Assembly (NCBI RefSeq): GCF_963921235.1
Contig: NC_086105.1
Location: forward strand, 95,480,001 to 95,544,000
DNA: 64,000 nucleotides
Origin: Mobula hypostoma
Taxonomy: Eukaryota
Reading direction: 5' to 3'
Shown: positions 420 through 56,107 of the stretch, in pieces
Layout: every line of letters begins with the position of its first letter
Position numbering within the stretch: position 1 is the first letter of the stretch
Position numbers and translations under genes: made by a program
Notes under the pieces: model-generated
The model's database searches: none
Told to the model about the DNA's origin: nothing
What the model saw: only the letters and a program-made list of their open reading frames with translations

Positions 420-2460
420 GTGTAGTGTGGCAGACTGACCTCTACCCTGCTGAGGCCAGGTGGCAACTCTCAGACATCTCCTCGTAACTACCCCAGGGGA
501 GGACCTCCTCGTACCTACCCCCAGGGGAGGACCTCCTCGTACCTACCCCCAGGGGAGGACCTCCTCGTACCTACCCGCAGGAGAGGACCTCCTCGTACCT
601 ACCCCAGGAGAGGACCTCCTCGTACCTACATCAGGAGAGGACCTCCTCGTACCTACCCCAGGGGAGGACCTCACTACAGAGCATCCAACTATTGTCTTCT
701 GCACCATTACCAACCTCATCGACTCTGGAGATCTCCTATCCACTGCCACTAACCTCAAAGTTCCCTTACTCCACACTGCTCGTTTCTACCCTACCCAAGA
801 TCACAAACCTGTATGCGTACGTCCATTGCTCCTACATGCACCTGCCCCAGTGAACTCATGCCCACGTAGCTCAACTTCAGTTTGTCCCCCTTTTGTTCAG
901 CCCCTTCCCACTTACACCCATGATACTTCACACGTTCTTGATCACTCTAAGTTCCCTGGCCCTGATGGCGTCATTTTTACAATGGCCATCCAGTCCCCAT
1001 ACACTCCTACTGGCCCATTTGATTTCTCTTTTGGCTTTTGGAACTTTCTCCAAACACAAGGTGAAGCCATGGACATCCACATGGGCTCCAGCTATACCTG
1101 CCTTTTCGTTGCTATGTGGGACAGTCCATATTCCAAGCCTACACTGCGAATGCTCTCCCACCTACTTCTAAGTTTCATCGACAACTTCATGCACCCATGC
1201 TGAGTTTGTCAGTTTCATCAACTTTGCCTCCAACTTTCAACCTGCCCTCAAATTTACTTGGTCTATCTTGGACATCTCTCTCCCCTTTCTTGATCTGTCT
1301 CTATCTCCATCTCTGGAGATATAAACCTACTGACTCTATACCTCTTCCCACCATCACTTGTAAAAATGCTATTCTCTTTTCTCAGTTCCTCCATGTCCAC
1401 TGCATCTGTTCCCAGGATGAGGCTTTCCATTCCAGATATGTCCTCCTCCTTCTAAGAATGGGTTTCCCTTCCTCTGCCATTGATGCTGCCCTCACCCAAG
1501 CCCCCCTCTATTTCATGGACATCTGTCCTCACACCACTCTCCCGCTACCATAACAGGAATAGAGTTGCTCTTGTCCTCACCACGAGCCTCCACATCCACT
1601 AGTTATTCTCCATATTGCCATCTTCAGTGGGATCCTACCACTGAATATATCTGCCCCTCCAGCCCACTCTGTGCTTTCTGCAGAGACTGCTCTGTCCATA
1701 ACTCCCTCGTCCACTCATCCCTCCCCACCGATCTCCCTCCAGGCACCTACCCCTCCAGGTAGGACCTGCTCAAAGCCTCCTCCCTCAGCACCATTCAGGG
1801 CCCCAAGCAGTCCTACCAGGTGAGGTGACTATTCACCTGCTGGGGGGTCACCTACTGTACCAGTGCTCCCAGTGCAGCCTCCTCAACATCGGTAAGATCT
1901 GATGTAGTTTGGGGGATCGCTTCATCAAGCAACTTCATTCTGTTGGCCTCAAAAGGCTGGTCTTCCTATTCCCCAGTTTGGCATGTTGGTCCGTGACTTC
2001 CTCTACAGTCACAGTGAGGCCACCCTCATGTTGGAGAAGCAACACTTCATATTCCATTTGGGTAGCCTCTAACCTGACAGCATGAACATTGATTCCTCTA
2101 ATGTCTGGTAATTTCTCTCCCCTCCCCCTCTCTCATTTTCCATCCCCCAATTTGGTTTCCCTCTCACCCTTTCTCTTCTCCCCAAGTGCCCATCACTTCC
2201 CTCTGGTGCCCCTCCTCCTCCCTTTTCTCCATTGGTCCACTCTCCTGTCCTATCAGATTCCTTCTTCTTCAGCTCTTTACCTCTTCGATCTATGACCTCC
2301 CAGCCTCTTCCTCCCCCCCCCCCGCAAAACCTGGTTTTGATTATCAGCTGTCAGCTTGTCCTCCTCCCCCTTCCTCCTTTCCAGTCCTGGTGAAGGGTCA
2401 GGGCCTGAAACATCGACTGTCTGACCTTCTGGCTTCTTCCTGCACTTTGTGCATGTTGCT
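420..2460 (+). mobile_element. Degenerate Penelope-like element (RT + GIY-YIG endonuclease remnants, 3' tail)
   Basis: Broken translations VVWQTDLY, AMDIHMGSSYTCLFV and AILFSQFLHVHCICSQDEAFHS; GIY-YIG-like YC..CSQCSLLNIG near 1850-1895; pyrimidine-rich tail with a hammerhead-like motif at about 2382-2420. Confidence 0.8.
476..672. repeat. 27-bp minisatellite (about 7 copies, CCTCCTCGTACCTACCCCAGGGGAGGA) expanded inside the Penelope-like element
   Basis: Direct tandem repeats; TPGEDLLVP repeats in the ORF track. Confidence 0.92.
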
Positions 2461-2691
2461 CTATTTCACTGTCAGTCAAATTTCTACAAAAAACAAGTTC
2501 TTCCCTTGCGTTCCCTCCTCCCCCAATGTCTCTCCCTTTCACACAAAACTGGACACACACAACTGAGGAAAGATCCACTTCTCCCCACACTCATAGTGGC
2601 CAGAATCCCGGTGTGCCTCACACCAGCAAGCTTCCCCAGGTCGGAAGCAAGAGAATATCTGCAAATGCTGGAAATGCTATGAGAGGCTTAC

Positions 2692-3072
2692 CCAAGTAGT
2701 GCAGGGTAAGTCCATGCTTGAAGCCGGACGCCGATGTTTGAAGAATGATGACACCTGGCCCTCGCCCTCGGATCACAAGCCTCCTGCCGGCCTCAGGGAC
2801 GCTCCACAAGAGACCACAGAATTCTCTTTCATTTTCTGTTGCTTCCAGTTTGATTTCCAAGTAGGCAGACTTGCAACTGGCTTCGGCCCAGGAGGTGGTC
2901 TGATGGGAGACAACGTCCAAGTGGATGGCGTCCGCATTCTTCAGGAGAATCCAGGAGCACCTGGCCCCGTTGATGGAGTCAGGCAAAGGCAGGAAGTACT
3001 GCAGAGTTCCATGGGTGCTGTAGGGCAAGAGAACGCCACTGCATTCCTGGTGGGTTGGACCAAGGAGAAGCC
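2692..3072 (-). CDS. Internal exon encoding a divergent CUB-like domain of an unidentified gene
   Basis: cctttag|GG acceptor and G|GTAAGC donor; 381 nt, phase 1-1, open. The translation ECSGVLL..HGTLQY..RCSWILL..IHLDV..SCKSAYLEI..EFCG..IILQTS..GLTLHY has the 4-Cys, C-x-W, YLEI and FCG pattern of CUB domains. Confidence 0.7.
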
Positions 3073-3449
3073 CTAAAGGATACAGACAGTGATTAAAGAA
3101 ACAACTGCACTCACTCACTGTTGGCATGCACATACACAGTCGAGTGAATTGTCTTGTGTACAATTACCATGAGGTACAGGTACAATGAGAACTTTGCTTA
3201 CAGCAACATCACAGGCGGGTGCAGTAGGTACAGAACACACAGTGTATAACTTATACATAAGAGACAATGAGAGGGAGAGAAAAAGACAGCACAAAAACAC
3301 GATTATCAGTGCAAAAACGGATGCAATAGAGCTAAGCGGTTGTCTGTAGCGTCCCATTGCTGATGTAGGATTAGGATTACGAGGGTAGTTCAAGAACCTA
3401 ATGGTTGTTGAAAGTACTGAACCTGTTCTACAGACAGCAAGAGATCCAA

Positions 3450-4140
3450 CACAGTTCTGTTGTATTCAGCCAGTACTGGGATGCACTGTCCTATAATACC
3501 ACAGGGAAACATGCTTAACCCACTGCTCTACTGATGACTATGTGGATAGACACAGCTCACATCCCATCTATAAATTCTCTGGTAACAGCACTGTTATCTC
3601 AGATGGCGATGTGGAGGCGTACGGAGGCAAAATGGATCGGCTAGTCAAGTGGTGTCACAACAAAACAGACTTACGTCCAATGTCAGCAAGACCAAGGAAC
3701 TGATGGTGGACTTCAGAAAGGAGTAGCCAGGAGAACAAACAACAACCCTTATCGAGGGGTCAGCGGTGGAAAGGGGGAGCAGTTTCAAGTTGCATCTCAG
3801 AGGATCGACCCTGGGCCCAACGTATCACGCCAGTGGGAGTTTGAGGAGATTTGCAATGTCACCAAAGACTCTAGCAAATTTCTACGGACGTTCAGTGGAG
3901 AGCATTGGAACGGGTTACATCACTGTCTGGTTTGGAGATGCCGATAGAAAGAATCAGAGCCTCCGCCATGGAGGTCATCTTCCAAAGCAGCATCCGCTCT
4001 CACCATCCGGGACACCCCTCTTCTCTTTACTGCAATCAGGGAGGATGTACAGGAACCGAAGACCCACACTCAACATTTTAGGGACAGCTTCTTCCCCTAC
4101 ACCACCAGATTTCTCAATGGTCCATGCATTCATGAACACT
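3450..4140 (+). mobile_element. Rex1/Babar-type LINE 3' fragment
   Basis: LRRFAMSPKTLANFYGRSVESIGTGYITVWFG and ..NVSKTKELMVDFRK-type motifs; frameshifted. Confidence 0.7.
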
Positions 4141-4275
4141 ACCTTGCTATTGCTCTTTAATTATTTTAATAATTCATTTAATTAATTATTTTATTGTAAT
4201 TTATAGTTTTTTTATGCCAGCACTGTAGAGCTGTCACAAAACAACACATTTCACAGTGTCAGCAAACCTGCTTTT

Positions 4276-7200
4276 GAACACAGTCAGTGCTGGCTCACAC
4301 CGTCCTGCTGTACACACAGTCAGTGCTATCTCACACGGTCCTGTTGTACACACAGTCAGTGCTATCTCACACGGTCCTGTTGTACACACAGTCAGTGCTA
4401 TTTCACACGATCCTGTTGTACACACAGTCAGTGCTATCTCACACGGTCCTGTTGTACACACAGTCAGTGCTATCTCACGCCGTCCTGTTGCACACACAGT
4501 ACTGGCTCACACGGTACTGTTGTACACACAGTCAGTGCTATCTCACACGGTCCTGTTGTGCACACAGTCAGTGCTATCTCACGCCATTCTGTTGTACACA
4601 CAGTCAGTGCTGGCTCACACCGTCCTGCTGTACACACGGTCAGTGCTATCTCACACGGTCCTGTTGTACACACAGTCAGTGCTATCTCAGACTGTCCTGT
4701 TGTACACACAGTCAGTGCTATCTCACACGGTCCTGTTGTACACACAGTCAGTGCTATCTCAGACTGTCCTGTTGTACACACAGTCAGTGCTATCTCACAC
4801 GGTCCTGTTGTACACACAGTCAGTGCTATCTCACACGGTCCTGTTGTACACACAGTCAGTGCTATCTCAGACTGTCCTGTTGTACACACAGTCAGTGCTA
4901 TCTCACACGATCCTGTTGTACACACAGTCAGTGCTATCTCACACGGTCCTGTTGTACACACAGTCAGTGCTATCTCACGCCGTCCTGTTGCACACACAGT
5001 ACTGGCTCACACGGTCCTGTTGTACACACAGTCAGTGCTATCTCACACGGTCCTGTTGTACACACAGTCAGTGCTAACTCACGCCATTCTGTTGTACACA
5101 CAGTACTGGCTCACACGGTCCTGTTGTACACACAGTCAGTGCTATCTCACACAGTCCTGTTGTACACACAATCAGTGCTATCTCAGACTGTCCTGTTGGA
5201 CACACAGTCAGTGCTATCTCACACGGTCCTGTTGTACACACAGTCAGTGCGATCTCACACGGTCCTGTTGTACACACAGTCATTGCAATCTCACGCCATC
5301 CTGTTGTACAACAGTCAGTGCAATCTCACGCCATCCTGTTGTACACACAGTCAGTGCTATCTCACGCCGTCCTGTTGTACACACTGTCAGTGCTATCTCA
5401 GACTGTCCTGTAGTACACACAGTCAGTGCTATCTCACGCCGTCCTGTTGTATACACAGTCAGTGCTATCCCAGACTGTCCTGTTGTACACACAGTCAGTG
5501 CGATTTCACACGGTCCTGTTGTACACACAGTCAGTGCTATCTCAGACTGTCCTGTTGTACACACAGTCAGTGCTATCTCACGCCGTCCTGTCGTACACCA
5601 GTCAGTGCTATCTCACGCCGTCCTGTCGTACACCAGTCAGTGCTATCTCACACGGTCCTGTTGTACACACAGTCAGTGCTATCTCACGCCATCCTGTGGT
5701 ACACACAGTCAGTGCTATCTCACACGGTCCTGTTGTACACACTGTCAGTGCTATCTCACACGGTCCTGTTCTACACACAGTCAGTGCTATCTCACACGGT
5801 CCTGTTGTAAACACAGTCAGTGCTATCTCAGAGTGTCCTGTTGTACACACAGTCAGTGCTATCTCACATGGTCCTGTTGTAAGCACAGTCAGTGCTATCT
5901 CACACGGTCCTGTTGTACACACAGTCAGTGCTATCTCACACGGTCCTGTTGTACACACAGTCAGTGCTATCTCAGACTGTCCTGTTGTACACACAGTCAG
6001 TGCTATCTCACACGATCCTGTTGTACACACAGTCAGTGCTATCTCACACGGTCCTGTTGTACACACAGTCAGTGCTATCTCACGCCGTCCTGTTGCACAC
6101 ACAGTACTGGCTCACACGGTCCTGTTGTACACACAGTCAGTGCTATCTCACACGGTCCTGTTGTGCACACAGTCAGTGCTATCTCACGCCATTCTGTTGT
6201 ACACACAGTCAGTGCTGGCTCACACCGTCCTGCTGTACACACAGTCAGTGCTATCTCACACGGTCCTGTTGCACACACAGTCAGTGCTATCTCACACGGT
6301 CCTGTTGTACACACAGGCAGTGCTATCTCACACGGTCCTGTTGTACACACAGTCAGTGCTATCTCACACGGTCCTGTTGTACACACAGTCAGTGCTATCT
6401 CAGACTGTCCTGTTGTACACACAGTCAGTGCTATCTCACACGGTCCTGTTGTACACACAGTCAGTGCTATCTCACACGGTCCTGTTGTACACACAGTCAG
6501 TGCTATCTCACGCCATCCTGTTGTACACACAGTCAGTGCTATCTCACACGATCCTGTTGTACACACTGTCAGTGCTATCTCACGCCGTTCTGTTGTACAC
6601 ACAGTCAGTGCTATCTCACACGGTCCTGTTGTACACACTGTCAGAGCTATCTCAGACTGTCCTGTTGTACACACAGTCAGTGCTATCTCACACGGTCCTG
6701 TTGTACACACAGTCAGCGCTATCTCATACTGTCCTGTTGTACACACAGTCAGCGCTATCTCACGCCGTCCTGTCGTACACCAGTCAGCGCTATCTCACAC
6801 GGTCCTGTTGCACACACAGTCAGTGCTATCTCACGCCGTCCTGTCGTACACACAGTCAGCGCTATCTCACACGGTCCTGTTGTACACACAGTCAGTGCTA
6901 TCTCACACGGTCCTGTTGTACACACTGTCAGTGCTATCTCACGCCGTTCTGTTGTACACATAGTCAGTGCTATCTCAGACTGTCCTGTTGTACACACAGT
7001 CAGTGCTATCTCACACGGTCCTGTTGTACACACGGTCAGTGCTATCTCACGCCATCCTGTTTAACATACAGTACTGGCTCACACGGTCCTGTTGTACACA
7101 CAGTCAGTGCTATCTCACACGGTCCTGTTGTACACACAGTCAGTGCTATCTCACACGGTCCTGTTGTACACACAGTCCGTGCTATCTCACACGGTCCTGT

Positions 7201-9555
7201 TGTACACACAGTCCGTGCTATCTCACACTGTCCTGTTGTACACACAGTCCGTGCTATCTCAGACTGTCCTGTCGTACACACAGTCAGTGCTATCTCACGC
7301 CGTCCTGTCGTACACACAGTCAGTGCTATCTCAGACTGTCCTGTTGTACACACAGTCAGTGCTATCTCAGACTGTCCTGTTGTACACACAGTCAGTGCTA
7401 TCTCAGACTGTCCTGTTGTACACACAGTCAGTGCTATCTCAGACTGTCCTGTTGTACACACAGTCAGTGCTATCTCAGACTGTCCTGTTGTACACACAGT
7501 CAGTGCTATCTCAGACTGTCCTGTTGTACACACAGTCAGTGCTATCTCAGACTGTCCTGTTGTACACACAGTCAGTGCTATCTCAGACTGTCCTGTTGTA
7601 CACACAGTCAGTGCTATCTCACACGGTCCTGTTGTACACACAGTCAGTGCTATCTCACACGGTCCTGTCGTACGCACAGTCAGTGCTATCTCACAAGGTC
7701 TTGTTGTACGCACAGTCAGTGCTATCTCACACGGTCTTGTTGTACGCACAGTCAGTGCTATCTCAGACTGTCCTGTTGTACGCACTGTCAGTGCTATCTC
7801 AGACTGTCCTGTTGTACACACAGTCAGTGCTATCTCAGACTGTCCTGTTGTACACACAGTCCGTGCTATCTCAGACTGTCCTGTCGTACACACAGTCCGT
7901 GCTATCTCAGACTGTCCTGTTGTACACACAGTCAGTGCTATCTCAGACTGTCCTGTCGTACACACAGTCCGTGCTATCTCAGACTGTCCTGTCGTACACA
8001 CAGTCCGTGCTATCTCAGACTGTCCTGTTGTACACACAGTCAGTGCTATCTCAGACTGTCCTGTCGTACACACAGTCCGTACTATCTCACACGGTCCTGT
8101 TGTACACACAGTCCGTGCTATCTCACACTGTCCTGTTGTACACACAGTCCGTGCTATCTCACACGGTCCTGTTGTACACACAGTCCGTGCTATCTCACAC
8201 TGTCCTGTTGTACACACAGTCCGTGCTATCTCAGACTGTCCTGTCGTACACACAGTCAGTGCTATCTCACGCCGTCCTGTCGTACACACAGTCAGTGCTA
8301 TCTCAGACTGTCCTGTTGTACACACAGTCAGTGCTATCTCAGACTGTCCTGTTGTACACACAGTCAGTGCTATCTCAGACTGTCCTGTTGTACACACAGT
8401 CAGTGCTATCTCAGACTGTCCTGTTGTACACACAGTCAGTGCTATCTCAGACTGTCCTGTTGTACACACAGTCAGTGCTATCTCAGACTGTCCTGTTGTA
8501 CACACAGTCAGTGCTATCTCAGACTGTCCTGTTGTACACACAGTCAGTGCTATCTCAGACTGTCCTGTTGTACACACAGTCAGTGCTATCTCAGACTGTC
8601 CTGTTGTACACACAGTCAGTGCTATCTCAGACTGTCCTGTTGTACACACAGTCAGTGCTATCTCACACGGTCCTGTTGTACACACAGTCAGTGCTATCTC
8701 ACACGGTCCTGTCGTACGCACAGTCAGTGCTATCTCACAAGGTCTTGTTGTACGCACAGTCAGTGCTATCTCACACGGTCTTGTTGTACGCACAGTCAGT
8801 GCTATCTCAGACTGTCCTGTTGTACGCACTGTCAGTGCTATCTCAGACTGTCCTGTTGTACACACAGTCAGTGCTATCTCAGACTGTCCTGTTGTACACA
8901 CAGTCCGTGCTATCTCAGACTGTCCTGTCGTACACACAGTCAGTGCTATCTCAGACTGTCCTGTCGTACACACAGTCAGTGCTATCTCAGACTGTCCTGT
9001 CGTACACACAGTCCGTGCTATCTCAGACTGTCCTGTTGTACACACAGTCCGTGCTATCTCAGACTGTCCTGTTGTACACACAGTCCGTGCTATCTCAGAC
9101 TGTCCTGTTGTACACACAGTCCGTGCTATCTCAGACTGTCCTGTTGTACACACAGTCCGTGCTATCTTAGACTGTCCTGTTGTACACACAGTCCGTGCTA
9201 TCTCAGACTGTCCTGTTGTACACACAGTCAGTGCTATCTCACACTGTCCTGTTGTACACACAGTCAGTGCTATCTCACACGGTCCTGTTGTACACACAGT
9301 CAGTGCTATCTCACACGGTCCTGTTGTACACACAGTCAGTGCTATCTCAGACTGTCCTGTTGTACACACAGTCCGTGCTCTCTCAGACTGTCCTGTTGTA
9401 CACACAGTCCGTGCTCTCTCAGACTGTCCTGTTGTACACACAGTCCGTGCTATCTCAGACTGTCCTGTTGTACACACAGTCCGTGCTATCTCAGACTGTC
9501 CTGTTGTACACACAGTCAGTGCTATCTCAGACTGTCCTGTTGTACACACAGTGCT
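4276..9555. repeat. 36-bp minisatellite array (about 145 copies; consensus CACACAGTCAGTGCTATCTCA[CACG/GACT]GTCCTGTTGTA)
   Basis: Tandem 36-bp units giving 12-aa periodic ORFs in several frames. Confidence 0.98.
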
Positions 9556-9708
9556 GGTCATGCTCTCTATCTCTCACACTGTGTCAGTGTCAAACGCTGA
9601 ACAGAGCAAAGTTTGGAAGATTTGTAATTGCGTGATTTGGATGAAGGGAAGAAAGGCGATGTTTGTATTAAAATTTAATACAGATGTAAACAACTATTTA
9701 GTTACATG

Positions 9709-9903
9709 CAACACCCACAAAGTGCTGGAGGAGCTCAGCAGGTCAGGCAGCATCTATGGAAGAGAATAAACAGTCGATATTTAACAAACGCCGACGTTGA
9801 ATAAACAAGACCTGAAGAAAGATCTCGGCCCGTAACGTTGACTATTCATTTCCATGGATGCTGCCTGACTTGCTGTGTTCCTCCAGCATTTTTTGTGTGT
9901 TGC
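9709..9903. mobile_element. Palindromic (tail-to-tail) Penelope-tail-derived non-autonomous element
   Basis: Arms tgctggaggagctcagcaggtcaggcagcatctatggaa and ttccatggatgctgcctgacttgctgtgttcctccagca are inverted repeats; relic hammerhead core inside. Confidence 0.7.
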
Positions 9904-18782: not shown

Positions 18783-18896
<114 letters not shown>

Positions 18897-19605: not shown

Positions 19606-19776
<171 letters not shown>

Positions 19777-20666: not shown

Positions 20667-20921
<255 letters not shown>

Positions 20922-21339
20922 TCACTCATATAGAAGACGGCCAACCGATAACCAGCTGGAAGAGATGTCATCAAACTACTTACTGAAAGTCAAGCTGCAG
21001 CATATCCCTTCAATTCTGACAGATGTTCACTGGCCCAAAATATTAATTTGTTCTCTAAGTAGGTACCATTTGTTAACCTGAAGTTCCATCATTTTATGTT
21101 TCAACCTGTTTGATGGTTGAACCAGCAGCCTCAGTTCATAAAAACACTGGAAGTTGTTTAAGCAATTTTCTTCAGCTAACTGGAGACGGACAATGGCATT
21201 GGAAGCAGCATGTCACTAATTTGAGATGATTTTGAAGCAAGCAGTATTCTACTTAAAACTACGTGGCTACTGGTTGGTGTTGGATAAAAATTGGCCAGGA
21301 CCGAGGCAAACTTCTGATCATTCTGGAAAGAGGCTGCAG

Positions 21340-22770
21340 TTATCCATCAACCAAAAACACTAACACAGATCTGCACAGTAATTTGACCTTTGCACTACCA
21401 GACTTCTTCCAAATCTGACCAATTCCCTTTTTACAACCACCCTCCCCCATCTGGCTGAACAGGTCCTTATCCTCAACAATCTTTCTTTCAGCTTCTTCAA
21501 GTTCAAGGTGTAGCCACTGGCACCCGCTTGGTAGGTGTACTGATACTGCTTCCTGTACCCATGCTGAGTTTGTCAATTTCATTAACATTGCCTCCAATTT
21601 CCACTCTGCCTTAAATTCACAATCTATTTCTGACACCACTCTCTCCTTTCTTGATCACTCTCCACCTCTGGAGACAAACTGTCTACTGACATCTTTAATA
21701 AGCCAACAGATTCCCATGGCTACCTTGACTATACCTCTGCCCACCGTCTCCTATAAAAATGTTATTCCCTTTTCTCAGATCCTTCGTCTCCACCCCCTCT
21801 GTTCCCAGGATGAGGCTTTCCTTTCCAGGGCATCACAGATGTCCCCTTTCAAAGAACAGGGTTTTCCTTTCTCCACCATTGATAATACCTCTCCCACATC
21901 ACCTCTATTTCCCACACATCTGCTCTCACCCCATCCTCTTGCTGCCTTAACAGGGATAGGGTTCCTCTTACCTTCACCCACCACCTCATTAGTCTCTGCA
22001 ACTTCTGTCAACTTCAACAGGACCCTACCACCAAACACATCTTTACCTCCCCCCCACCCAAACTCTTCCCTTGTCCATTTGTCCTTCCCTCTAATCTCCC
22101 TCCCAGCACTTACCCCTGAAAGCAGCCGAAGTGCTTTACCCGACCATTCACCTCCATCTTGGGGCCCAAACAGTCCTTCCAGGTGAGGCAACACTTCACC
22201 TGCCAATCTGTTGGATTCATCTACTGAAACCAGTGCTTCCGAAGCAGCCTCCGTTACATTGGTGAGACAGCTTTTGTCGAACACCTCCGCTCCATCCGCA
22301 AAATTTCCCCAAGAGCCAACCATTTTAATACTCATCAGCTTCCCATTCTGACATGTTGGTCCCTGCCTCCTCTTCTGCCACAATGATGCCATTCTCAGGT
22401 TGGAAGACCTTATCTTCTGTCCAGGTAGCCTCCAAGCTGATGGCATGAACATCAATTTCTCCATCCAGTAATACCCACCTTCCCTCTTCTTCTATCCCCA
22501 CTCTGGCCTCTTATCTCTTCTCATTTGCCTATCCCCACTCCTCCCTTTTCTCCACTTTCCTTTGCTATCAGATTACTTCTCCAGCCCTTTATCTTTTCCG
22601 ATTATTACTTCCCAAATTCTTACTTCATCCTCCCTCTTCCACCCGACTTAACCTTTCACTTTCTACCTTGTCCTCTTTCCCCTCCCCCACCTTATTCTAG
22701 CATCTTCCTTCTTCCCAGTCCTGATGAAGTTGACTCTTAATTCATTTCCATAGTCATTGCAGCATTGTGT
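21340..22770 (+). mobile_element. Degenerate Penelope-like element with tail
   Basis: NVIPFSQILRLHPLCSQDEAFLSR; GIY-YIG remnant near 22200-22270; CTGATGA tail motif at about 22720. Confidence 0.75.
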
Positions 22771-23334
22771 GTCATGGACCAATACCATTAAGCAAGGTGT
22801 CCATGGACCGCAGGTTGGGAACCCTTGATATGTGTTCTTCCATGTTTGCTGTCATACATTTATCACTCTTTTTGTATGTTTGATAGAACTAATTTAGTCT
22901 AATAATTTTCATATGGTCAAGTGCATACAACTTTTTACTTGCCTTCATCCTACCCGAGGGCGGTCGACCTGCTGTTTTGGATATACTCTCACTTCTTCCT
23001 TTTCCACTTTATTTTCCCTGGTGCTGCACCTCTCACCAGTCTGAATCCTGACCCAAACCGCTCTCCTGCTACCATCTTGAAGCTGACTCTTCCTTAAAAC
23101 AGCCTTTCCCTTTGTACTCCTAGCATCCTCTGAATGGCCAATAAGCCGTTCATCATCGCTGTCCAACACCAGAGCTTATTCTTATTGATATCCTTCCTAT
23201 ACAACCGATCCAATCTAGTGCCAGGCTTTGGAAAGCAGTTTTATTTCCTTACCCTCTCTGCATGTGCCTCCTTGAATATTTGATTTATAAAAAGCCTTAT
23301 TACTTGTCATATTATTGTTGGCAATTATATTATT

Positions 23335-25094
23335 ATGGCCTTGACAGAAGCTGGACTGTGACAGATATTCACTCCCATCTCACATTTGCTAAGCTTGCTT
23401 TTAAATAGCAACTTATGGAGAAGAGTATGTAACTGAGTATGCGCCATGAGGCTTGCTTCACCCTTCACCTTCTAAGGGTGCAAAGGGTTAGGGCCCATCC
23501 CAAATGTCCACTCCCTCCCTAATATAGCACGACATCCTTTAGAGCACTATTGTCAAATATGGTACAGTGATGGATCCACTCAATTATAATCCTTGCTCCT
23601 GATTATAAAAGGAAAATTGTTATCGGAAACTGCATTTGAAACACACGGGTTGCAAGAACGTCCTTTAAGGAATCATACGGCCCAGTCTGCAGAGGCTAAA
23701 ACCCTAGAATTATGTCTAAAACAAGACAAGAGAACCAGTCTTCATATGTACTGACTCTGATTATTTTAGGAATATGATAGAAAGAGATCTTCCTATCTGG
23801 TCAACTGCTGGATGGAGAGAACACAAAGGTAAACTGCTTTCGCATTGATTTATGAGTTCTTATTGACTCAGACATTAGCACTGGAGTTACACATTCCAGG
23901 ACAAACTACAGGCCTCTTACAGCTATGGTAATAAAGTACCAAAACAAGCTGTCAAGATGGACCTTACTATAGTAAGGGAGGCCAGGGTTTTCGTAGTAAC
24001 TAAGCAACAAATAAAAAATAACTAAGATGATGTTTGAAGAATTCTCCCAGATACAACTGAACCCAATCTCAAAGTAGTTCCAACACAGTACAAACATGAT
24101 GCTGATGGTGAAGGCAAGGTTTGGGTTTGCCACCCTAAAATAGACAAGCAAATACCCCCTGCCCACCAAGGGGAAGCATCGATTCAAGAAGTCCACCAAG
24201 GAATCGGACACAAATATGGTGACGGACAAGCCACTCAAACAAAATTAGCCACGTTATACTGGTCACCCTACATGTTGAATGATTGTAAGCAATTCATTCC
24301 TGGCATATAATAAAAGAGCAGTTGCAAGACCACCTTCTATAAAATCAACTGCACCAATGCAAGTGTAGAAATGGATTATATAGACCTATTTCTGGCATCC
24401 CAAGGTACACCACCTTATGAGAAAACTAGTTAGTATATTCTGCTGGTAATTGATCTTTGTATGGGACATATGTGGTTTGTCTCCGCAACTTGTAGTGAGA
24501 TCGCAAACATCACAGCACTCCAAAACTCCAGAGTCCCACATGCTGGTACCCTCACCTGCATACATGCCAGTCGAAGGTTTTCCTTCATGGCGAGGGATTT
24601 CAAGCGATGTGAATAAACAGGCAGGAGTGAAGTGCAACACTCCCTACCAGCTGAGTGAAGGATTCTAGAGATGAGGTGAGACTTGGAAAAACGTCTACTC
24701 TAGAGGCAAAGCAGACTGTGCCTGAAGTACAACAATACACCAATTGTGAAAAAAGGTGTACACAAGAATCAGGCCAACCAGCACCTATACCCAATACAAC
24801 TCTCCTCAAATTACTGGGAGCTTATGGGAATTCAAGAGAAAACAAAAGAACATGACAAGAAATTTTGGAGATCACAAAAAGGGGACTGTGTCCCAGGAAA
24901 GAAATTCCATAAAAATAATTCCAACCCTAGTTTGAGTTCTAGATGGAAACTTCCTTGTTTCATTACCCAGGTTGGACTGTGGTAATGAAGACCAGGAGGG
25001 GAAACAAGACTGTAAGTAATCTGTCTCCATAGAAAATATCAAACCTGCCCCAGCAGGATTTACACCTTTGACTTTTAAAACCATCTCTTACTAG
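23335..25094 (+). mobile_element. pol: Endogenous foamy-virus-like (spumaretrovirus) pol remnant: connection, RNase H, integrase
   Basis: Manual translation across stops and frameshifts gives WYSDGS (23560), PLRNHTAQSAE (23662), PVFICTDSDY..RDLPIWSTAGW, PTQY..GKVWV..QIPP..EVH..ATQTKLATLYWSPYM (24080-24275), MDYIDLFLASQG..YILLVID..GHMW (24371), NTPYQ and [20 protein letters not shown] (to 25046). These are collinear with prototype foamy virus Pol as recalled. Confidence 0.85.
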
Positions 25095-26401
25095 ATTTTG
25101 TGTGTTACATTATATAATGGTGGAAGACTTGCCAGGAGGAGAAAGATAGCTACCCCTCAGGAATGTTACACTCCTGATCACTTTTTACCTATTCTGTTGT
25201 GACTTCTTCAGAAATGCAGATGTAATCCTACAGCCTTCAGCCTGCAAAGCGTTATACTGTCACAAGGTAGAACTATTTGAATGCGTTTCACTTCTTATTT
25301 GGGTAAAAGCATATATTGCATACGTGGTACCCCTACAATGAAGTAGGACCATTAGGCTCACTGCTATTCATGTCATATTTGTTACAAGACCTCTTTTCCA
25401 TAAATGCTGCCTGGCCTGCTGAGTTCCTCCAGCATTTTGTGTTCACTGCTTAGATTATCAGCATCTGCAGATTTTTTCTTGCTTGGGACTGGATTACTAC
25501 TCTGCGAAGTCTCTCCAGGGATGCCTACGCTGAAGTTTAAACCTTTGCTTCAACGGCAGTTCAGTGAAACACTCTCTCACTGCTCCCCCACCATTATCCC
25601 TGCTTCTCTCCAACTCTTTGACCACGTGCTTACCCAGACCTGCAACTACAGCCATGTATCCTTTCAGGGAACATGCATTCGCGGCCAGCTTGTGCTTTGG
25701 AAATGGTTTACATTTTAGAACTGGTTTGTAATTGGGAAATGTTTAAGATAGAAATCCTACCAGTTTTTAATGCGTTGTGTGGATATAAACATATATCACT
25801 GTAAATAAATTAACTGTGCTTTAAACTACTTTGTTAGTTGGAAATACCTTCTCCTTGGTAGGGAGGGGGGACCCACCAATCGACCAGTGGGTATCGGCAT
25901 CTAAACTCGCCATGGAGAATAAACGCAGGAGTAAACTATTTGTTGAATATTGGGTAGATTCAGTATAAACTCCCTTTACTGAGAGTATTCATGGATACTT
26001 ATACCCAATAGGGCTTAACGTCTTCGTCTGAATTTAAAACTCAGAGTCAGCAAGCCCAACATCATCACAGGCTGCTAATGCTGCCAGTATACCTGCCAAA
26101 TAATTCCTCCCTGCAACACATCTTCTACTTTTTGTCTGGCTCAACACTGAAAAAACAGATCCTGGTGTCCTCTTACATCAGCAACACTTTCCTCTCCTTT
26201 GTTTCTTGTGCCACACTCTACCCACCAAAACACCATAAAAGTTCCCTCATATTTTAATTGCTCTCTTCCCCAAACCTCTGCACAGTGCAACATCCCATCC
26301 TTGGTGATTTCAAACTCTTGATTTATTTTGCATTCTCTTTAAAATTCATCACTCTGCCACATGTCCTGAAACATTTTTTCAAAGTAAAGCCCATTGTCTA
26401 T

Positions 26402-28189
26402 GTTGTATGAAACAGGTGAATTAATTATGGGGAGCAAGGACATGGCAGACCAATTGAATAATTACTTTGGTTCTGTCTTCACTAAGGAGGACATAAGTAA
26501 TCTTCCAGAAATAGTAGGGGACAGAGGGTCCAGTGAGATGGAGGAACTGAGCGAAATACATGTTAGTAGGGAAGTGGTGTTAGGTAAATTGAAGGGATTA
26601 AAGGCAGATAAATCCCCAGGGCCAGATGGTCTGCATCCCAGAGTGCTTAAGGAAGTAGCCCAAGAAATAGTGGATGCATTAGTGATAATTTTTCAAAACT
26701 CGTTAGATTCTGGACTAGTTCCTGAGGATTGGAGGGTGGCTAATGTAACTCTACTTTTTAAAAAAGGAGGAAGAGAGAAACTGGGGAATTATAGACCGGT
26801 TAGCCTAACGTCGGTGTTGGGGAAACTGCTGGAGTCAGTTATCAAGGATGTGATAACAGCACATTTGGAAAGCGGTGAAATCATCGGACAAAGTCAGCAT
26901 GGATTTGTGAAAGGAAAATCATGTCTGACGAATCTCATAGAATTTTTTGAGGATGTAACTAGTAGGGTGGATAGGGGAGAACCAGTGGATGTGGTATTTT
27001 TGGATTTTCAAAAGGCTTTTGACAAGGTCCCACACAGGAGATTAGTGTGCAAACTTAAAGCACACGGTATTGGGGGTAAGGTATTGGTGTGGGTGGAGAA
27101 TTGGTTGGCAGACAGGAAGCAAAGAGTGGGAATAAACGGGACCTTTTCAGAATGGCAGGCGGTGACTAGTGGGGTACCGCAAGGCTCAGGGCTGGGACCC
27201 CAGTTGTTTACAATATATATTAATGACTTGGATGAGGGAATTAAATGCAGCATCTCCAAGTTTGCGGATGACACGAAGCTGGGTGGCAGTGTTAGCTGTG
27301 AGGAGGATGCTAAGAGGATGCAGGGTGACTTGGATAGGTTGGGTGAGTGGGCAAATTCATGGCAGATGCAATTTAATGTGGATAAATGTGAAGTTATCCA
27401 CCTTGGTGGCAAAAATAGGAAAACAGATTATTATCTGAATGGTGGCCGATTAGGAAAAGGGTAGGTGCAACGAGACCTGGGTGTCATTATACACCAGTCA
27501 TTGAAAGTGGGCATGCAGGTACAGCAGGCGGTGAAAAAGGCGAATGGTATGCTGGCATTTATAGCGAGAGGATTCGAGTACAGGAGCAGGGAGGTACTAC
27601 TGCAGTTGTACAAGGCCTTGGTGAGACCACACCTGGAGTATTGTGTGCAGTTTTGGTCCCCTAATCTGAGGAAAGACATCCTTGCCATAGAGGGAGTACA
27701 AAGAAGGTTCACCAGATTGATTCCTGGGATGGCAGGACTTTCATATGAAGAAAGACTGGATGAACTGGGCTTATACTCGGTGGAATTTAGAAAATTGAGG
27801 GGGGGATCTGATTGAAACGTATAAAATCCTAAAGGGATTGGACAGGCTAGATGCAGGAAGATTGTTCCCGATGTTGGGGAAGTCCAGAATGAGGGGTCAC
27901 AGTTTGAGGATAAAGGGGAAGCCTTTTAGGACCGAGATTAGGAAAAACTTCTTCACACAGAGTGGTGAATCTGTGGAATTCTCTGCCACAGGAAACAGTT
28001 GAGGCCAGTTCATTAGCTATATTTAAGAGGGAGTTAGATATGGCCCTTGTGGCTACGGGGATCAGGGGGTATGGAGGGAAGGCTGGGGCGGGGTTCTGAG
28101 TTGGATGATCAGCCATGATCATAATAAATGGTGGTGCAGGCTCGAAGGGCCGAATGGCCTACTCCTGCACCTATTTTCTATGTTTCTAT
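26402..28189 (+). mobile_element. CR1 LINE, 5'-truncated, well preserved (RT domain)
   Basis: 356-aa ORF with [22 protein letters not shown] and KFADD; one TAG at about 27462; frameshift in a G-run near 27800; 3' tail ..ctattttctatgtttctat. Confidence 0.95.
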
Positions 28190-29029
28190 CTCAGCCACTG
28201 TAATAAAATACTATTTCTATTTTGACAGCAACATATACTAACTTCCTGAATGTCATACTCTTCACACTCCCCTCACTTCACCAAACCCCAATTCCCTCCA
28301 AGTCCACTCCAAGAAAATGTCTGCCCTTAAATTTAATTCGTGATATTTTCAGAATTTTGTCTTTTGGCTTCATTTCTGCAACTACTGGTATGCACAACCA
28401 AATGCTTTCTCCCACTTTTCATTCTCCAGTTATTAAAATAAACATTCACCATTTCATTTCCTAGCTAAAGTGGGTATTTCCACTCTCTTAATAGAAGACT
28501 GCAGATTTGAACAGTAGTAACTACTGAATCGTGGCTTCACACTTTGACCGTATTGTCTTCTCCCTACTCACTGGGACAAAATTCTAGGTTGCCTCACACT
28601 CACTCACTCTACAAGACCCAACGCTGAACATATCTGCTCCTCTACTATCCCTTGGTCTCTTCTAACTCACCTCATCACAAGATGCATCCTTTGATTTGAT
28701 TACTACAAAATTTCTGGCAATCCAATTTCCCTTTTAGCCACTTATAGTAACTGACAGATTCACAATGTACCACTTCCCTCACCTTTAATCACCACCCATT
28801 TCCTCAACTTAAAAAAAAAGCCACCTTTGTGAACAATGCTCTTTTCAGCCTTTGCTGTATGAAATCCCCAAATCTGTAATCACTTATTCTGGAATTCTTT
28901 GTCTGAATATCTTCACACAGTGTTGTTTCCTGCATACAATTCTCTCTCCTGCTCAAAGACATCCCTTAAAACTTACCTCGCTAACAAAGCTGTTAATGAT
29001 CTGATCTTTTATCTCCTAAGTAGATTCAA

Positions 29030-29560
29030 GGTGTGGTGCAACATAGAAACAGGGCCTTCAGCCCACTTTATCCATGCTGACTAAGGAGCCTTCCTCAGCT
29101 TTCAATTGCCTCTCAACCTTTCCTATCTCACCAAACTTCTTTTAAACACTAATTGTACCCATCTCTACATTTTCTCTGGCAGTTAATTTCATAATACCAG
29201 AATTATGAGTCTGGTAACATCACCTTGTGAGAAACTTGCCATCAGGTCTCCTATAAATCTTTCCCCTCTTACCTTAAACCTATGTCCTTTACTTTTAGAC
29301 TCCACTACCTGAAGAATTGGACTGTGAATATTCACCATGATTTTGTAAATCTATACAGGTTCAACCCTTGGCCTCTATCCCTCCAGGGAAACCAATCGTA
29401 GCGTATGCAATCTCCCCTTGTAACAGAAGCTCTCCACAGCCACCACCATCTTTACGAATCATTTCTGCACCGTCTCTAGCTCGATCACATCATTTCTACA
29501 AATGTAAATCAGAGATGCACACAATATTCCAGGTGCAGCTTCTCAAAGTCCTGAAGTAGC
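29030..29560 (-). mobile_element. Old CR1 3' fragment
   Basis: Reverse complement of a CR1 3' end (catagaaacagggccttcagccca..). Confidence 0.55.
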
Positions 29561-30606
29561 TGGACTCTGATCTTTTTGTTTGAACACTCATGGGAAGCAC
29601 TTGGGAGACATTTTCACTATGGAAGCGATACAATTTGCCATCTCTCACTCAGGTCCACTCCAGTACTTAATAAGATCATAGCTAATCTGATTGTCAGCCT
29701 TGACTCCACACTCTTATTATGATAGCCTTTCACCTCCTTAGCAAGTGGGCAACCCCTAGTTCCAGATTCTCCCAGAAGCGCAAAGAGCCTCTTCACATCT
29801 GTTTGGTGTACAGTATTTCAATTTAGCTATTCTTTATTATTCACTCATAAACACATAGGACAAGATAAAGCAGACTGAGAAAATTAGCCATGAATACTTT
29901 CAATAATGCAGTAGGCTTGAGGGTACTGTTCTCCAACTTCCCCACAACTCTTCCATTCTACGTATTAGTAAAGTAAAGCATCTGAGAAGGCCTTCCAACA
30001 CACCAATGCCCTTCACTAAATAAGAAACATAACAGATGTTGTCTCACTAATTCTCCAAAGACATGAAGCACGTTTGCATTCAATTCACCTGTAATAAACA
30101 ATAACAGTCAGCTCTCCCAATCACTTGTACATTGCTTTTTGCAGAACACTGCAAGATTTTGAAAGCTCTGCAATCGCCCACCACTTACATTTCCTACAAG
30201 AACGGAAAAGCTCATTTTTCCAAATTATATTCCACTTGTCAGATCTTTAACCAAATTATAACCCATTTCTCTTTACAACAACCTCATATTCCCCTCACAG
30301 TTTACCTAAGCATTGCTGAAGTTGTTATTCGAGGCTCTGAATTCACAATAAACACTATATAAATGCAAATTTCTTTCTTGCCCACCCTACACTTTCACTT
30401 AATCGTCCTGACCTTGGCAACGGACAGGACAGAGATCAATGGCACTTCTTCCAAGTCTGAACCCTGGTTTCAAGGAATGACTGCAGAAAATTATCCGGAC
30501 GGAACGGAGTACTTACCAGGAACCCCCAAGAACCCCACATCACCCCACCCCCACTCCAGTGTGGGTCCCTGCCCGGGTTAGAGTCACGCTCTAGCTTTCT
30601 CATTAC

Positions 30607-30768
30607 CTGAGCCGCGCTCGATGCAGTGGGAGCCTGCCGGCTGAAACCGTGGAAGAAGTTTCTGCCGGCCAGGACAGGGAGCTGGGTCCCGTACACCAGG
30701 CCTGTCCTTGGCCCACCCCAAGGTTGCGGCCACCGGCGGAGGCACCGAGACAACACACGCGACGCCAT
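30607..30768 (-). CDS. NDUFAB1: NDUFAB1 coding exon 1 (mitochondrial targeting peptide)
   Basis: AAGATGGCG start; MASRVLSRCLRRW..ASSAAQ (54 aa, Arg-rich, no acidic residues); CAG|GTAATG donor; CpG island. Confidence 0.93.
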
Positions 30769-53460: not shown

Positions 53461-53890
53461 ATGGTTCTATAGAGATCTCATTTTTTCTTTAAAGAAATCC
53501 TATTGCATATTTATTGAAGAGAAAAATACAATTGACTTTTGGATTAGGTAGAAAATAGACTGTCATACTTCGAGGGACTGATTAAATGGCAATGTGTGCT
53601 TACTCTCTTAGATGACACAATGAACCATTCTATTTTCTGCTCTTTTGTAGATTATTTGAACCTCTCTGGTTTTAGACACAATGTCTGTAGAGAACAGTCA
53701 CTATACTTAAAGGCTTCCAGTGGCCGTGAAGTGTTTTTCAGAGATTATGCAAGATTGTATGAAAATAAAAGTTCTTTTTTACTTTTTTCTAATCAAAAAT
53801 AAATGAGCTTTGCTTTCAGAGCAAATCATGCATGAGACTAGCAGTCAAATCAATTCAAGTCCAACAAACCACAGTGTATTCGGTGCTCAC

Positions 53891-55639
53891 CTCCTGAGAG
53901 CTTCACTCTCCTCCTGGACTGAGACACTGGCAACTCTGTCTGCTCTTGGTCCAAACCAACCCCCAATGGAAGTGACCACCTTGTGTCATTTAAACGCTGC
54001 TTCAAGGCAGTGTCATCGGAAGAATCCTGCTGAGTTTCCGGGATCATGTCCTGACTGTCAATATCACTATTTGTGCTTGATAGCTCAGGCATACTCACTG
54101 CAGATTTAACTTGTGCTATCAACAGATCATTTGTGTCTTCTTTACAAGGTTTTATCAACACATCATTAGTCTGAATTGCGTTAGATTTCTGCAGTGGTTC
54201 TACTTGTTCATTGGCTTTGTTTTGCAATGGGCTGGAATTCTTCAGAGTGAAGTTAGTAGTCCCTGAAAAGTGATGACTATCCATGTTATTTTCAGTTTCT
54301 CCATCGAGTTCATTAGAGTCAGGCATTGTCTGGCATGTATTAATTTCATTCCTCTTGACGTCATTTTCACCCTGAACATCAGAAGGCAGAGCAATCTGAA
54401 CATCGCTGGGAACTCTGTGGTCATTTGAATTCTTCTCCACAGACTTCTGTGGAAAATCAGTCAGCTGGAACTTAGTACTTTCTCTTCTACCTCTTTTTCT
54501 TCCTTTCCTTTGGCTTGATTTAGTGTTCTGGGAATTATCACTCACATTACAACGATCTTGCAGGGTAGGCTGCAAGGAAGTTGAACCAGATTCTCTGGCA
54601 CCACCTTCCCGATTATTAAAAAGTAACAACGTATCACAGGTTTCTGCTTCACCCTTTGGGGTGCCTTCTACAGGACTGCTCTGGTTATGCGTGGATTTCC
54701 TGGGTCTTCCTTTCCCCCCATTTCTGGACTTTCCCAACTGGTTATGAATCACTGCATCCAGATCCACCTGTCGCTGACAACTGGCCATTTGGCGAGTGGT
54801 CCGAACGTAGTACTCGACAGGAAAGATAAGTCCTTCAACAAGTGTACAAGACTTCAGTGGGCTATCTCCCGGAGACTTACACACAGTGGTAGCTGCTTGC
54901 TGCTCACCTGGTTCTGCTACAACTCTCTCATCCTTAAGGTTGGATTCAGAAGCTTCACTAGGGTCCTTAGAGCAATTTGGCTTTGCTTCTGGCAGCGTAG
55001 CATCTTCAGTCGGCACTGCTGAAGAGCAAGCTTCATTATTGCACATCAGCCCTCCTGAGGACTTGCCTTCAGGACAGTGAGAATTAGAGTCACTTGCTAG
55101 TCTTGTGTTGGGTGTAATCACACAATTATCTTCTATTTCCTGTGCTCCATTCATTAACAGTGCTGAGTTCCCCTCAGATTGGAGGAGTGCATCGAGCTTT
55201 GTGTTCTCTTCAACACATCTATCAAGAATCTGGGGGACATTGATAACTCTGTTACTGATGAGTGGATCCACTGTTTCCATTTTTTTAACACAAGGCTCTC
55301 CACTGGCAGCCAAAGGTTCATCTGACTCACTGGTTAATTCACACTCTCTTTTCAATACTTTGCATGACCTCTTTTTTCTTAGTTTCAGACGACTTTGAAC
55401 TCCTCCTTCTGTCCTTGTGATGGGATTAATTTCTTCAGCTGCAGGACTGCAGGGTTGAGCTGAAGAGTCAACACTTTCGCAGGTGCCCATTAAAGACTCA
55501 TTTGAATGCTTAATAATTTCTGGCTCAATGCTGAAGGTTATGGTAGAATTCTTTTCCTTGCTTTCTTCTGCTGGAACTCGACTTTCCTTAAAAGGAGAGC
55601 TGGACCAATATGTCCCCAAAATAGAGGGATATTCATTTC
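53891..55639 (-). CDS. PALB2: PALB2 large exon 4 (contains ChAM)
   Basis: 1749 nt open, phase 1-1; ChAM SCTLVEGLIFPVEYYVRTTRQMASCQRQVDLDAVIHNQL; ttttaag|GA acceptor and G|GTGAG donor. Confidence 0.95.
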
Positions 55640-56107
55640 CTTAAAAAGAATCAAGAAAGACACATTAGATCCTTTCCTAACCCTTCAGAGAAACAGAATG
55701 AAACAGGGACATAAACATCTTACTGACAAAAGAACCATACAGGGAACAGGCCTCAAATTGTGAAAAGCGTAAGTTAGGAAACGCAAGTTAGTTAATCGGC
55801 AAAGAAACAGGATTAAAAGAACAGAAAGCAAAGGTGTTCCCCTCAGTGCAGTAGCTTACAACTCCACACCCTTAACGCAGACATCAGTACATACATGCAT
55901 TACATAGAAAGCCAAACATAGGAGAGTTGAGAAGCAGGTTGGCTGTACGCATTCAGTTATACAGCCTGCATATGCCCTTTAGGGTTAACACTCCTCGCTG
56001 GAACATGGGAACTTAAGAAAATTCTTCACCGTGGCCCATCATAAATGAAATATCAATGAAAAGGCACAATCCAGTGTGAGGCTGAAACCATTTTACTGTG
56101 GACCTAC

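Follow-up and report, generated by a model that had tools for sequence, protein, structure and literature searches.

The window analysed here, a stretch of 64,000 nucleotides of the Mobula hypostoma genome (NC_086105.1, positions 95,480,001 to 95,544,000), carries the host gene NDUFAB1 on its minus strand. Exons 2 (20688..20810) and 3 (19635..19722) match mitochondrial ACP with E-values of 8e-14 and 2e-12 respectively, and the coding part of exon 4 lies at 18783..18874. The coding part of exon 1 (30607..30768) has an ATG and a GT donor and encodes what we take to be the targeting peptide. Intron 1 extends over 20811-30606, with confirmed splice sites, and contains at 23357-26069 a dead, multiply deleted provirus on the plus strand. 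Since NDUFAB1 is read from the minus strand, the element is antisense within intron 1; a previous interpretation of this DNA (the sequence-only reading) had proposed this location, and the exon matches and splice sites bear it out.

That reading had seen a pol fossil alone and had ended it too early. The element reaches 26069 and is a whole provirus reduced by deletions, with LTR, gag and 3' pieces, all on the plus strand. It begins with a 5' LTR start (TG..., 23357..23413) that aligns with the LTR starts of sister copies and is cut by a deletion joint at about 23413. A Pro/Gly-rich 3' end of gag follows (23413..23519), up to a second joint at about 23519; this piece maps just upstream of the gag end of the sisters and, in copy C5c, more than 1 kb upstream of RT, a position on account of which its assignment to the RT palm was dropped. 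The deletion at the second joint removed protease, RT and most of the tether, and none of ten sisters runs unbroken across either joint. The tether end and RNase H (23519..24043) were delimited by alignment to FFV and PFV and by matches to a profile of foamy RNase H (E 2e-5 and 0.013), and are interrupted by stops and by a frame change between 23724 and 23735. Integrase (24044..25062), identified by its match to PFV integrase and by the integrase tree, retains the N-terminal extension, the HHCC domain, the core and an SH3-type C-terminus, with stops and frame changes. At least about 3 kb has been lost between it and the piece of the 3' region that follows (25059..25386; env end or accessory region), which matches sister sequences located 3-7 kb downstream of integrase. 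A short high-copy repeat, with many matches on both strands and very high depth, was later inserted in the provirus (25389..25485), and the 3' part of the 3' LTR (25690..26069, ending ...CA) aligns with the LTR ends of the sisters. The candidate target-site duplications, GGAC on the left (23353..23356) and GGCT on the right (26070..26073), both given on the plus strand, are identical at two of four positions, a pair that is weak on its own.

All the motifs named in the sequence-only reading are present in the plus-strand translation, in three frames between 23365 and 25046, where that reading had placed them, and the likeness that it saw to prototype foamy virus (PFV) RNase H and integrase is real. 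Translated in a single frame, with X for each stop, the stretch 23720-24982 has PFV integrase as its top PDB match (E 5.6e-6), followed by foamy RNase H chains. Against PFV Pol it scores 50 bits, compared with at most 25 bits for 150 codon shuffles, and of 346 stored proteins the 44 that score best come from foamy viruses, are foamy-like proteins of amphibians or are unnamed relatives. Pfam alone gave no match on three frames of the window stretch (0/3), and a word-based search with the window pol stretch, covering long proteins only, gave none among 796 candidates. The motifs attributed to the connection domain fared unevenly: from RHPLEHY onward they are true Pol, whereas IFTPISHL and KGLGPIPNV are not. 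By comparison with the sisters, IFTPISHL (23365-23388) sits in the non-coding LTR start, ahead of the joint at 23413, and KGLGPIPNV (23482-23508) results from reading the gag 3' end in the wrong frame and lies ahead of the joint at 23519, so that both are chance likenesses.

Other features of the window were recorded in passing. Two decayed frames, presumably of retroelement type, flank the provirus in the same intron (21419-22491 and 26388-27461). A long tandem repeat at 4207-9766 contains stop-free frames of up to 1451 codons, and a 596-aa open frame on the minus strand (53853-55640), with no Atlas match at or above 0.9, is by gene order what we take to be the large PALB2 exon.

A family of broken copies in the genome

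The sequence-only reading had called such elements rare, which is wrong within the source genome (3.48 Gb). The element DNA gave at least 62 matches at about 70% identity (40 scored of 624 candidates), the integrase piece at least 148 matches (150 scored of 289) in about 139 separate places, and an RT piece from a sister copy at least 150 matches (150/150 scored, of 443 candidates). As a lower bound, the genome thus contains about 140 or more broken copies of the family, among which the window copy, dead itself, is an ordinary one. No copy listed has a long open pol frame, the longest being 227 aa in the integrase search and 272 aa in the RT search; a further search reached 430 aa, with 12 stops within the match. 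For the comparison of sisters, at least 20 kb was fetched around 28 copies and shorter stretches around others. The fuller copies that the sequence-only reading had proposed to look for do exist as regards LTRs, the gag end and protease, without detectable foamy homology in Env or Gag.

The LTRs of the family measure 1.05-1.19 kb in six measurable cases. A 2-nt spacer follows the 5' LTR end, and then a primer site complementary to host tRNA-Lys(CTT). The matching tRNA end has 20 genomic matches, and the four that were fetched were all called Lys(CTT). In copy C55a, 14 of 15 letters match the tRNA-Lys(CTT) 3' end, and most of 16 5'-LTR ends are followed by decayed forms of the site. In five copies that retain their two ends, a 4-bp target-site duplication is seen, with scores of 4, 3, 3, 2 and 2 out of 4; one copy is perfect and 14 of the 20 pooled letters agree, two of the LTR starts having been placed by eye. 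At the border between polypurine tract and 3' LTR, a purine tract is followed by TG, the exact motif varying among the decayed copies; GGGTG at this border has been described as a foamy-like feature (PMC5210030).

Decay limits what can be read at the end of gag, where an exact YSFR is found in 4 of 20 copies and related forms in about five more; Y-x-x-R is given as the foamy chromatin-binding Gag motif in PMC6042332. Within the same limits, a Cys-His box was seen in none of 20 copies. The order protease, RT, tether, RNase H and integrase, with foamy-type integrase ends, is present in the family. The protease has a D-T-G site, with D in 20 and T in 23 of 26 copies at the catalytic columns; a profile for the foamy protease, of type A9 in true foamy viruses, gave no match, few protease-keeping copies having been searched. 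At the integrase end begins a frame that resembles env and has a hydrophobic, Cys-rich leader, and column counting in this region, where the phase slipped, gives long open stretches only. In single copies the 3' region is decayed beyond annotation of tas/bel accessory genes or an internal promoter. Pfam searches of the genome for foamy Env (PF03408) and Gag (PF03276) gave no match, the controls being silent too. Pfam found no Env family in 15 env-region frames, one of the 15 giving an SH3_11 match under the curated cut-off (E 7e-4), and profiles of env pieces had chance matches only in PDB. As no search linked this frame to foamy Env, we infer an env gene from its place and shape.

In these traits the family resembles PFV, FFV, BFV and the foamy-like elements NviFLERV, AciFLERV and AliFLERV, with which it shares the Pol clade, the integrase N-terminal extension and the SH3-type end, as well as a tRNA-Lys primer site and a 4-bp duplication; within the limits set by decay, a Y-x-x-R near the Gag end and the lack of a visible Cys-His box may be common to them too. 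The same tRNA-Lys primer site is reported for AciFLERV in the supplement of PMC5512871.

Placement of the family and related sequences

Judged by its RT and integrase sequences, the family belongs to the foamy clade. A profile built from 16 natural single-frame pieces matched 13 chains in PDB, all of them foamy (best E 1e-18), and the sister RT piece matched foamy Pol at 1.5e-10, compared with 0.37 for the next retroviral chain. Against 1.84 billion proteins, the best of 92 profile matches was P0001 (E 2e-37; next match 2e-19), followed by proteins of Pelodytes, Spea and Pleurodeles with feline foamy virus Pol, and then by Gypsy-like proteins.

In an RT tree of 42 rows, five sisters of the window copy group together with support of 100/100, with P0001 at 98/92 and within the foamy clade at 97/96. 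An integrase tree of 42 rows, which includes the window's own piece and used a simpler model with long branches, gave 100/100 for the family, 99/95 for the family with P0001 and 99/100 for the foamy clade. No CmiFLERV, coelacanth (CoeEFV), named teleost FLERV or loki sequence is among the rows; the protease motif alone makes P0242 look like a teleost FLERV. AU tests on an RT set of 19 rows rejected grouping of the family with Gypsy (p-AU 0.0005) and with class I elements (p-AU 0.004), so that the foamy identity advanced in the sequence-only reading holds in the PDB matches, the trees and the AU tests alike. Support for the family with P0001 fell to 87/88 on this set, and three alternative placements inside the foamy clade are not rejected (p 0.20, 0.17 and 0.28); the sister link between the two is not firm.

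P0001 is an unnamed protein encoded by a Logan contig of 10,956 nt. It is intact-looking: a single frame of 1687 aa encodes Gag, a protease of RVP type and Pol. Its identity with PFV Pol is 35%, and the protein searches found nothing closely related to it. It is the nearest library protein to the family, its sister in both trees, and like it has Gag and Pol in one frame, but differs in having no stop between Gag and protease. Comparison of P0001 Gag with the family copies, and of family gag profiles with the 346 stored proteins, gave nothing significant, nor was any Gag or Env homology of the family to foamy viruses or P0001 detectable. Atlas values for P0001 Gag were all below 0.9. P0001 may represent a foamy-like virus that has yet to be described, either circulating or endogenous and young.

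Several other viral sequences were met during these searches. P0239, from a Logan contig of 10,295 nt, is an intact foamy Pol, 55% identical to that of feline foamy virus, which branches outside the mammalian foamy viruses. The source genome also holds a second, much younger retroviral family (L068, L070, L071, L074, L075 and L076) with frames of up to 751 aa and short branches; it groups neither with foamy viruses nor with class I elements or Gypsy and is possibly snakehead-retrovirus-like or loki-like. Four further loci (L069, L072, L073 and L077) are class I-like ERVs with long open pol frames, and a class I-like match at G000:C2:216150058 has an open frame of 1386 aa.

Foamy-like ERVs of cartilaginous fish are already known (PMC5512871, PMC10699275), as are SnRV- and epsilon-like ERVs of sharks (PMC4422223). 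The foamy-like CmiFLERV of the elephant shark and XtrFLERV (Aiewsakun & Katzourakis 2017, PMC5512871) resemble the family in lying outside the tetrapod and coelacanth foamy viruses and in likely host group. Compared by description, they differ in that only pol is given as detected in the accessible text, whereas many copies of the family also show a protease, the end of gag, LTRs with a primer site and a region resembling env. The Spuma element ERV-Spuma.0-Sca of the small-spotted catshark came out of a screen of 12 chondrichthyans (Jing et al. 2023, PMC10699275). It is described with an LTR of 866 nt with another start, an env of 1.3 kb and an age of about 36 Myr; the family has LTRs of 1.05-1.2 kb and is far older. 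For a group known so far mostly from pol pieces, the present family adds LTRs, a primer site, gag and a region resembling env.

Age, decay and orthologous insertions

The LTR pairs of six copies differ by K2P distances of 0.19-0.24 over 181-1058 sites, and three shorter pairs by 0.22-0.28; the pair of copy C1a (0.086 over 98 sites) was left out, being short and perhaps not a genuine pair. The window pol is at a median distance of 0.23 from 20 sisters in local alignments, and the median among 30 copies in a global alignment is 0.32, which makes these distances floors. For variants found in single, 2-3 and four or more copies, pN/pS is 1.21, 1.00 and 0.90 (304 codons), and as the ratio stays at 0.9-1.2 in all classes, the copies have decayed neutrally after one old wave. 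At an assumed rate of 0.5e-9 per site per year, the one assumed in PMC10699275, the wave would date to about 190-240 Myr; an assumed 1e-9 gives about 95-120 Myr, and an assumed 2.2e-10, taken from PMC4422223, more than 400 Myr. One deletion joint just behind the catalytic codon is common to 17 of the 23 junction rows of the second group, so a defective sub-lineage multiplied, for which enzymes would have been needed in trans.

The element stretch or part of it was found in 20 public runs with five organism labels, the source genome being organism A; no RNA run was listed. In organism B, one contig covers the 5' host junction together with both 5' deletion joints (18 differences in 648), another the joint at 25062, and a third the 3' junction (9 differences in 552). 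Contigs of organism C cover the 5' junction (35/502 differences) and the 3' junction (29/558). From organisms D and E came short pieces that differ from the window by 1-3%, none of which bridges a junction. The same insertion is thus present in runs of two other species, and dating by orthology, which the sequence-only reading had expected to be possible, is borne out by these junction-spanning contigs. The insertion predates the A/C split, and the deletions spanned in organism B predate the A/B split. The distance from copy to copy is 3-4 times the A-C distance, and the family offers hundreds of old loci datable in the same manner. Inside the element the differences to organism C are 7/140, 19/about 330 and 8/171; since this divergence is no lower than at the edges, there is no sign of constraint, and the NDUFAB1-intron copy likely has no role today.

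The gag/pro-pol junction and the expression of Pol

What distinguishes foamy viruses from all other retroviruses is that their Pol is made separately from Gag. The gag/pro-pol junction of the family is kept only in sister copies, not in the window copy. Thirty copies with the protease region were found, nine of which also keep the gag end. In six of these nine, one natural frame runs without an indel from the gag end through the catalytic site to the flap, and five of the six have a stop at the same place. After the addition of 23 further copies, the junction codon of 28 readable rows is TAG in 15 and TAA in three, and nine of the ten non-stop rows are one letter from TAG. In the alignment of 30 copies the gag frame runs on through the RT motifs, the other two frames being shut by dozens of shared stops, and from the TAG to the catalytic Asp no column carries an ATG in more than one copy. 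Three pol-frame columns contain 46-56% stops; these are TGA beside CAA and CGA, as in most lesser ones, and show the pattern of CpG decay, which the TAG column does not.

The family has no pol with its own AUG in a frame other than that of gag. It shares clade, primer site and target-site duplication with true foamy viruses, yet its pro-pol lies in the gag frame behind a TAG and has a D-T-G protease site, whereas true foamy viruses express Pol from a spliced message (PMC7828637). The junctions of NviFLERV-2, AciFLERV and AliFLERV, as given in the supplement of PMC5512871, have pol with its own ATG in another frame. An in-frame gag/pro-pol stop like that of the family is described for gamma- and epsilonretroviruses and for the class III XtERV-S (PMC8278194), the Pol of which falls in other clades.

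Given one shared frame, one TAG, no in-frame ATG and the single frame of P0001, readthrough of the TAG to yield a Gag-Pol fusion is the likely mechanism, as far as the frame layout of dead copies indicates. Taken as a whole, we consider it probable that the window element is a dead provirus of the foamy lineage, one of many, whose Pol was produced as a fusion to Gag by readthrough of the stop codon. A virus that was infectious and carried an env-like gene would have entered the germ line, likely on the order of 100-200 million years ago. It would have translated gag and read through the TAG into Gag-Pol, rather than using a separate spliced pol message, and would have spread in a single long-past wave before decaying, a defective sub-lineage being copied during that wave with enzymes supplied in trans. 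A 6-bp stem just 3' of the stop pairs in 134 of 159 cells, compared with 14-47% when slid, and folding of the segment around it gives a mean z of about -0.5, no lower than that of another segment; picked from the same alignment, the stem is a weak lead, not evidence.

A provirus of the foamy lineage could also have expressed Pol from a spliced message, a splice having linked an upstream AUG with an acceptor located at the gag TAG or immediately behind it, and the shared frame being incidental. Such spliced, Gag-independent Pol is a hallmark of the clade (PMC7828637), the TAG itself ends in AG with a second AG within 10 nt, and an ATG in the +1 frame stands 17 nt ahead of the TAG in 24 of 28 copies. 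We nevertheless regard splicing as unlikely in this family: the acceptor has no clear pyrimidine tract, the stretch from TAG to the catalytic Asp has no in-frame ATG column, P0001 is one unbroken Gag-Pol frame, and the +1 frame closes about 40 codons on, before the flap, with stops in five of seven. A protease translated in the +1 frame from its own Met was likewise dropped, as that frame closes and the gag frame carries both the catalytic site and the flap.

It is improbable, in our estimate, that the live virus had an unbroken Gag-Pol frame like that of P0001 and that the TAG is a disabling mutation passed on by a defective master copy, which a helper had multiplied. The absence of a junction stop in P0001 and in 4 of 9 protease-keeping copies would fit, as would the spread of defective sub-lineages with shared deletions, but TAG is the commonest codon both in protease-keeping copies (4/9) and in the others (11/19). 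The ten non-stop codons, moreover, are of six different kinds, five of these one step from TAG, and no shared sense codon marks a helper group.

Retention of the intronic copy for a function in NDUFAB1, as an enhancer or antisense RNA, is very improbable: the insertion is fixed and common to at least three species labels, but every frame of the window copy is broken and its divergence to organism C is about that over the junction contigs, with no extra conservation. Scarcely credible, and already largely refuted, is a Gypsy retrotransposon or class I (gamma/epsilon-like) ERV that came to resemble foamy Pol only by decay, a notion to which the in-frame TAG (a gamma/epsilon layout, PMC8278194), the lower-ranked Gypsy-like library matches and the long copy branches lend themselves, but against which stand both AU rejections, the uniformly foamy PDB matches of the profile, the margin of the RT piece and the tRNA-Lys(CTT) primer site.

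With readthrough as the preferred reading, a foamy-clade family with an in-frame gag stop, together with the single-frame P0001, would mean that Gag-independent Pol is not universal in the clade, and the origin of that trait becomes testable by tree and reporter assay. More tentatively, and with less than even confidence, we suggest that the family and P0001 represent an early foamy branch which retained an ancestral Gag-Pol fusion, that spliced Pol arose after the split between the viruses of cartilaginous fish and those of bony vertebrates, and that the family is among the oldest orthology-datable foamy-like insertions.

In the largely open-access literature searched, which included text of PMC6001957, PMC8227577, PMC12789967, PMC12690878 and two preprints, neither a description of the family nor any element of the foamy clade with a gag stop in the pol frame was found. 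In the published table for the catshark element ERV-Spuma.0-Sca, gag (1538-3796) and pol (3920-6865) are both given in frame 3 (PMC10699275), which may be the layout of the present family gone unremarked, or that of another lineage.
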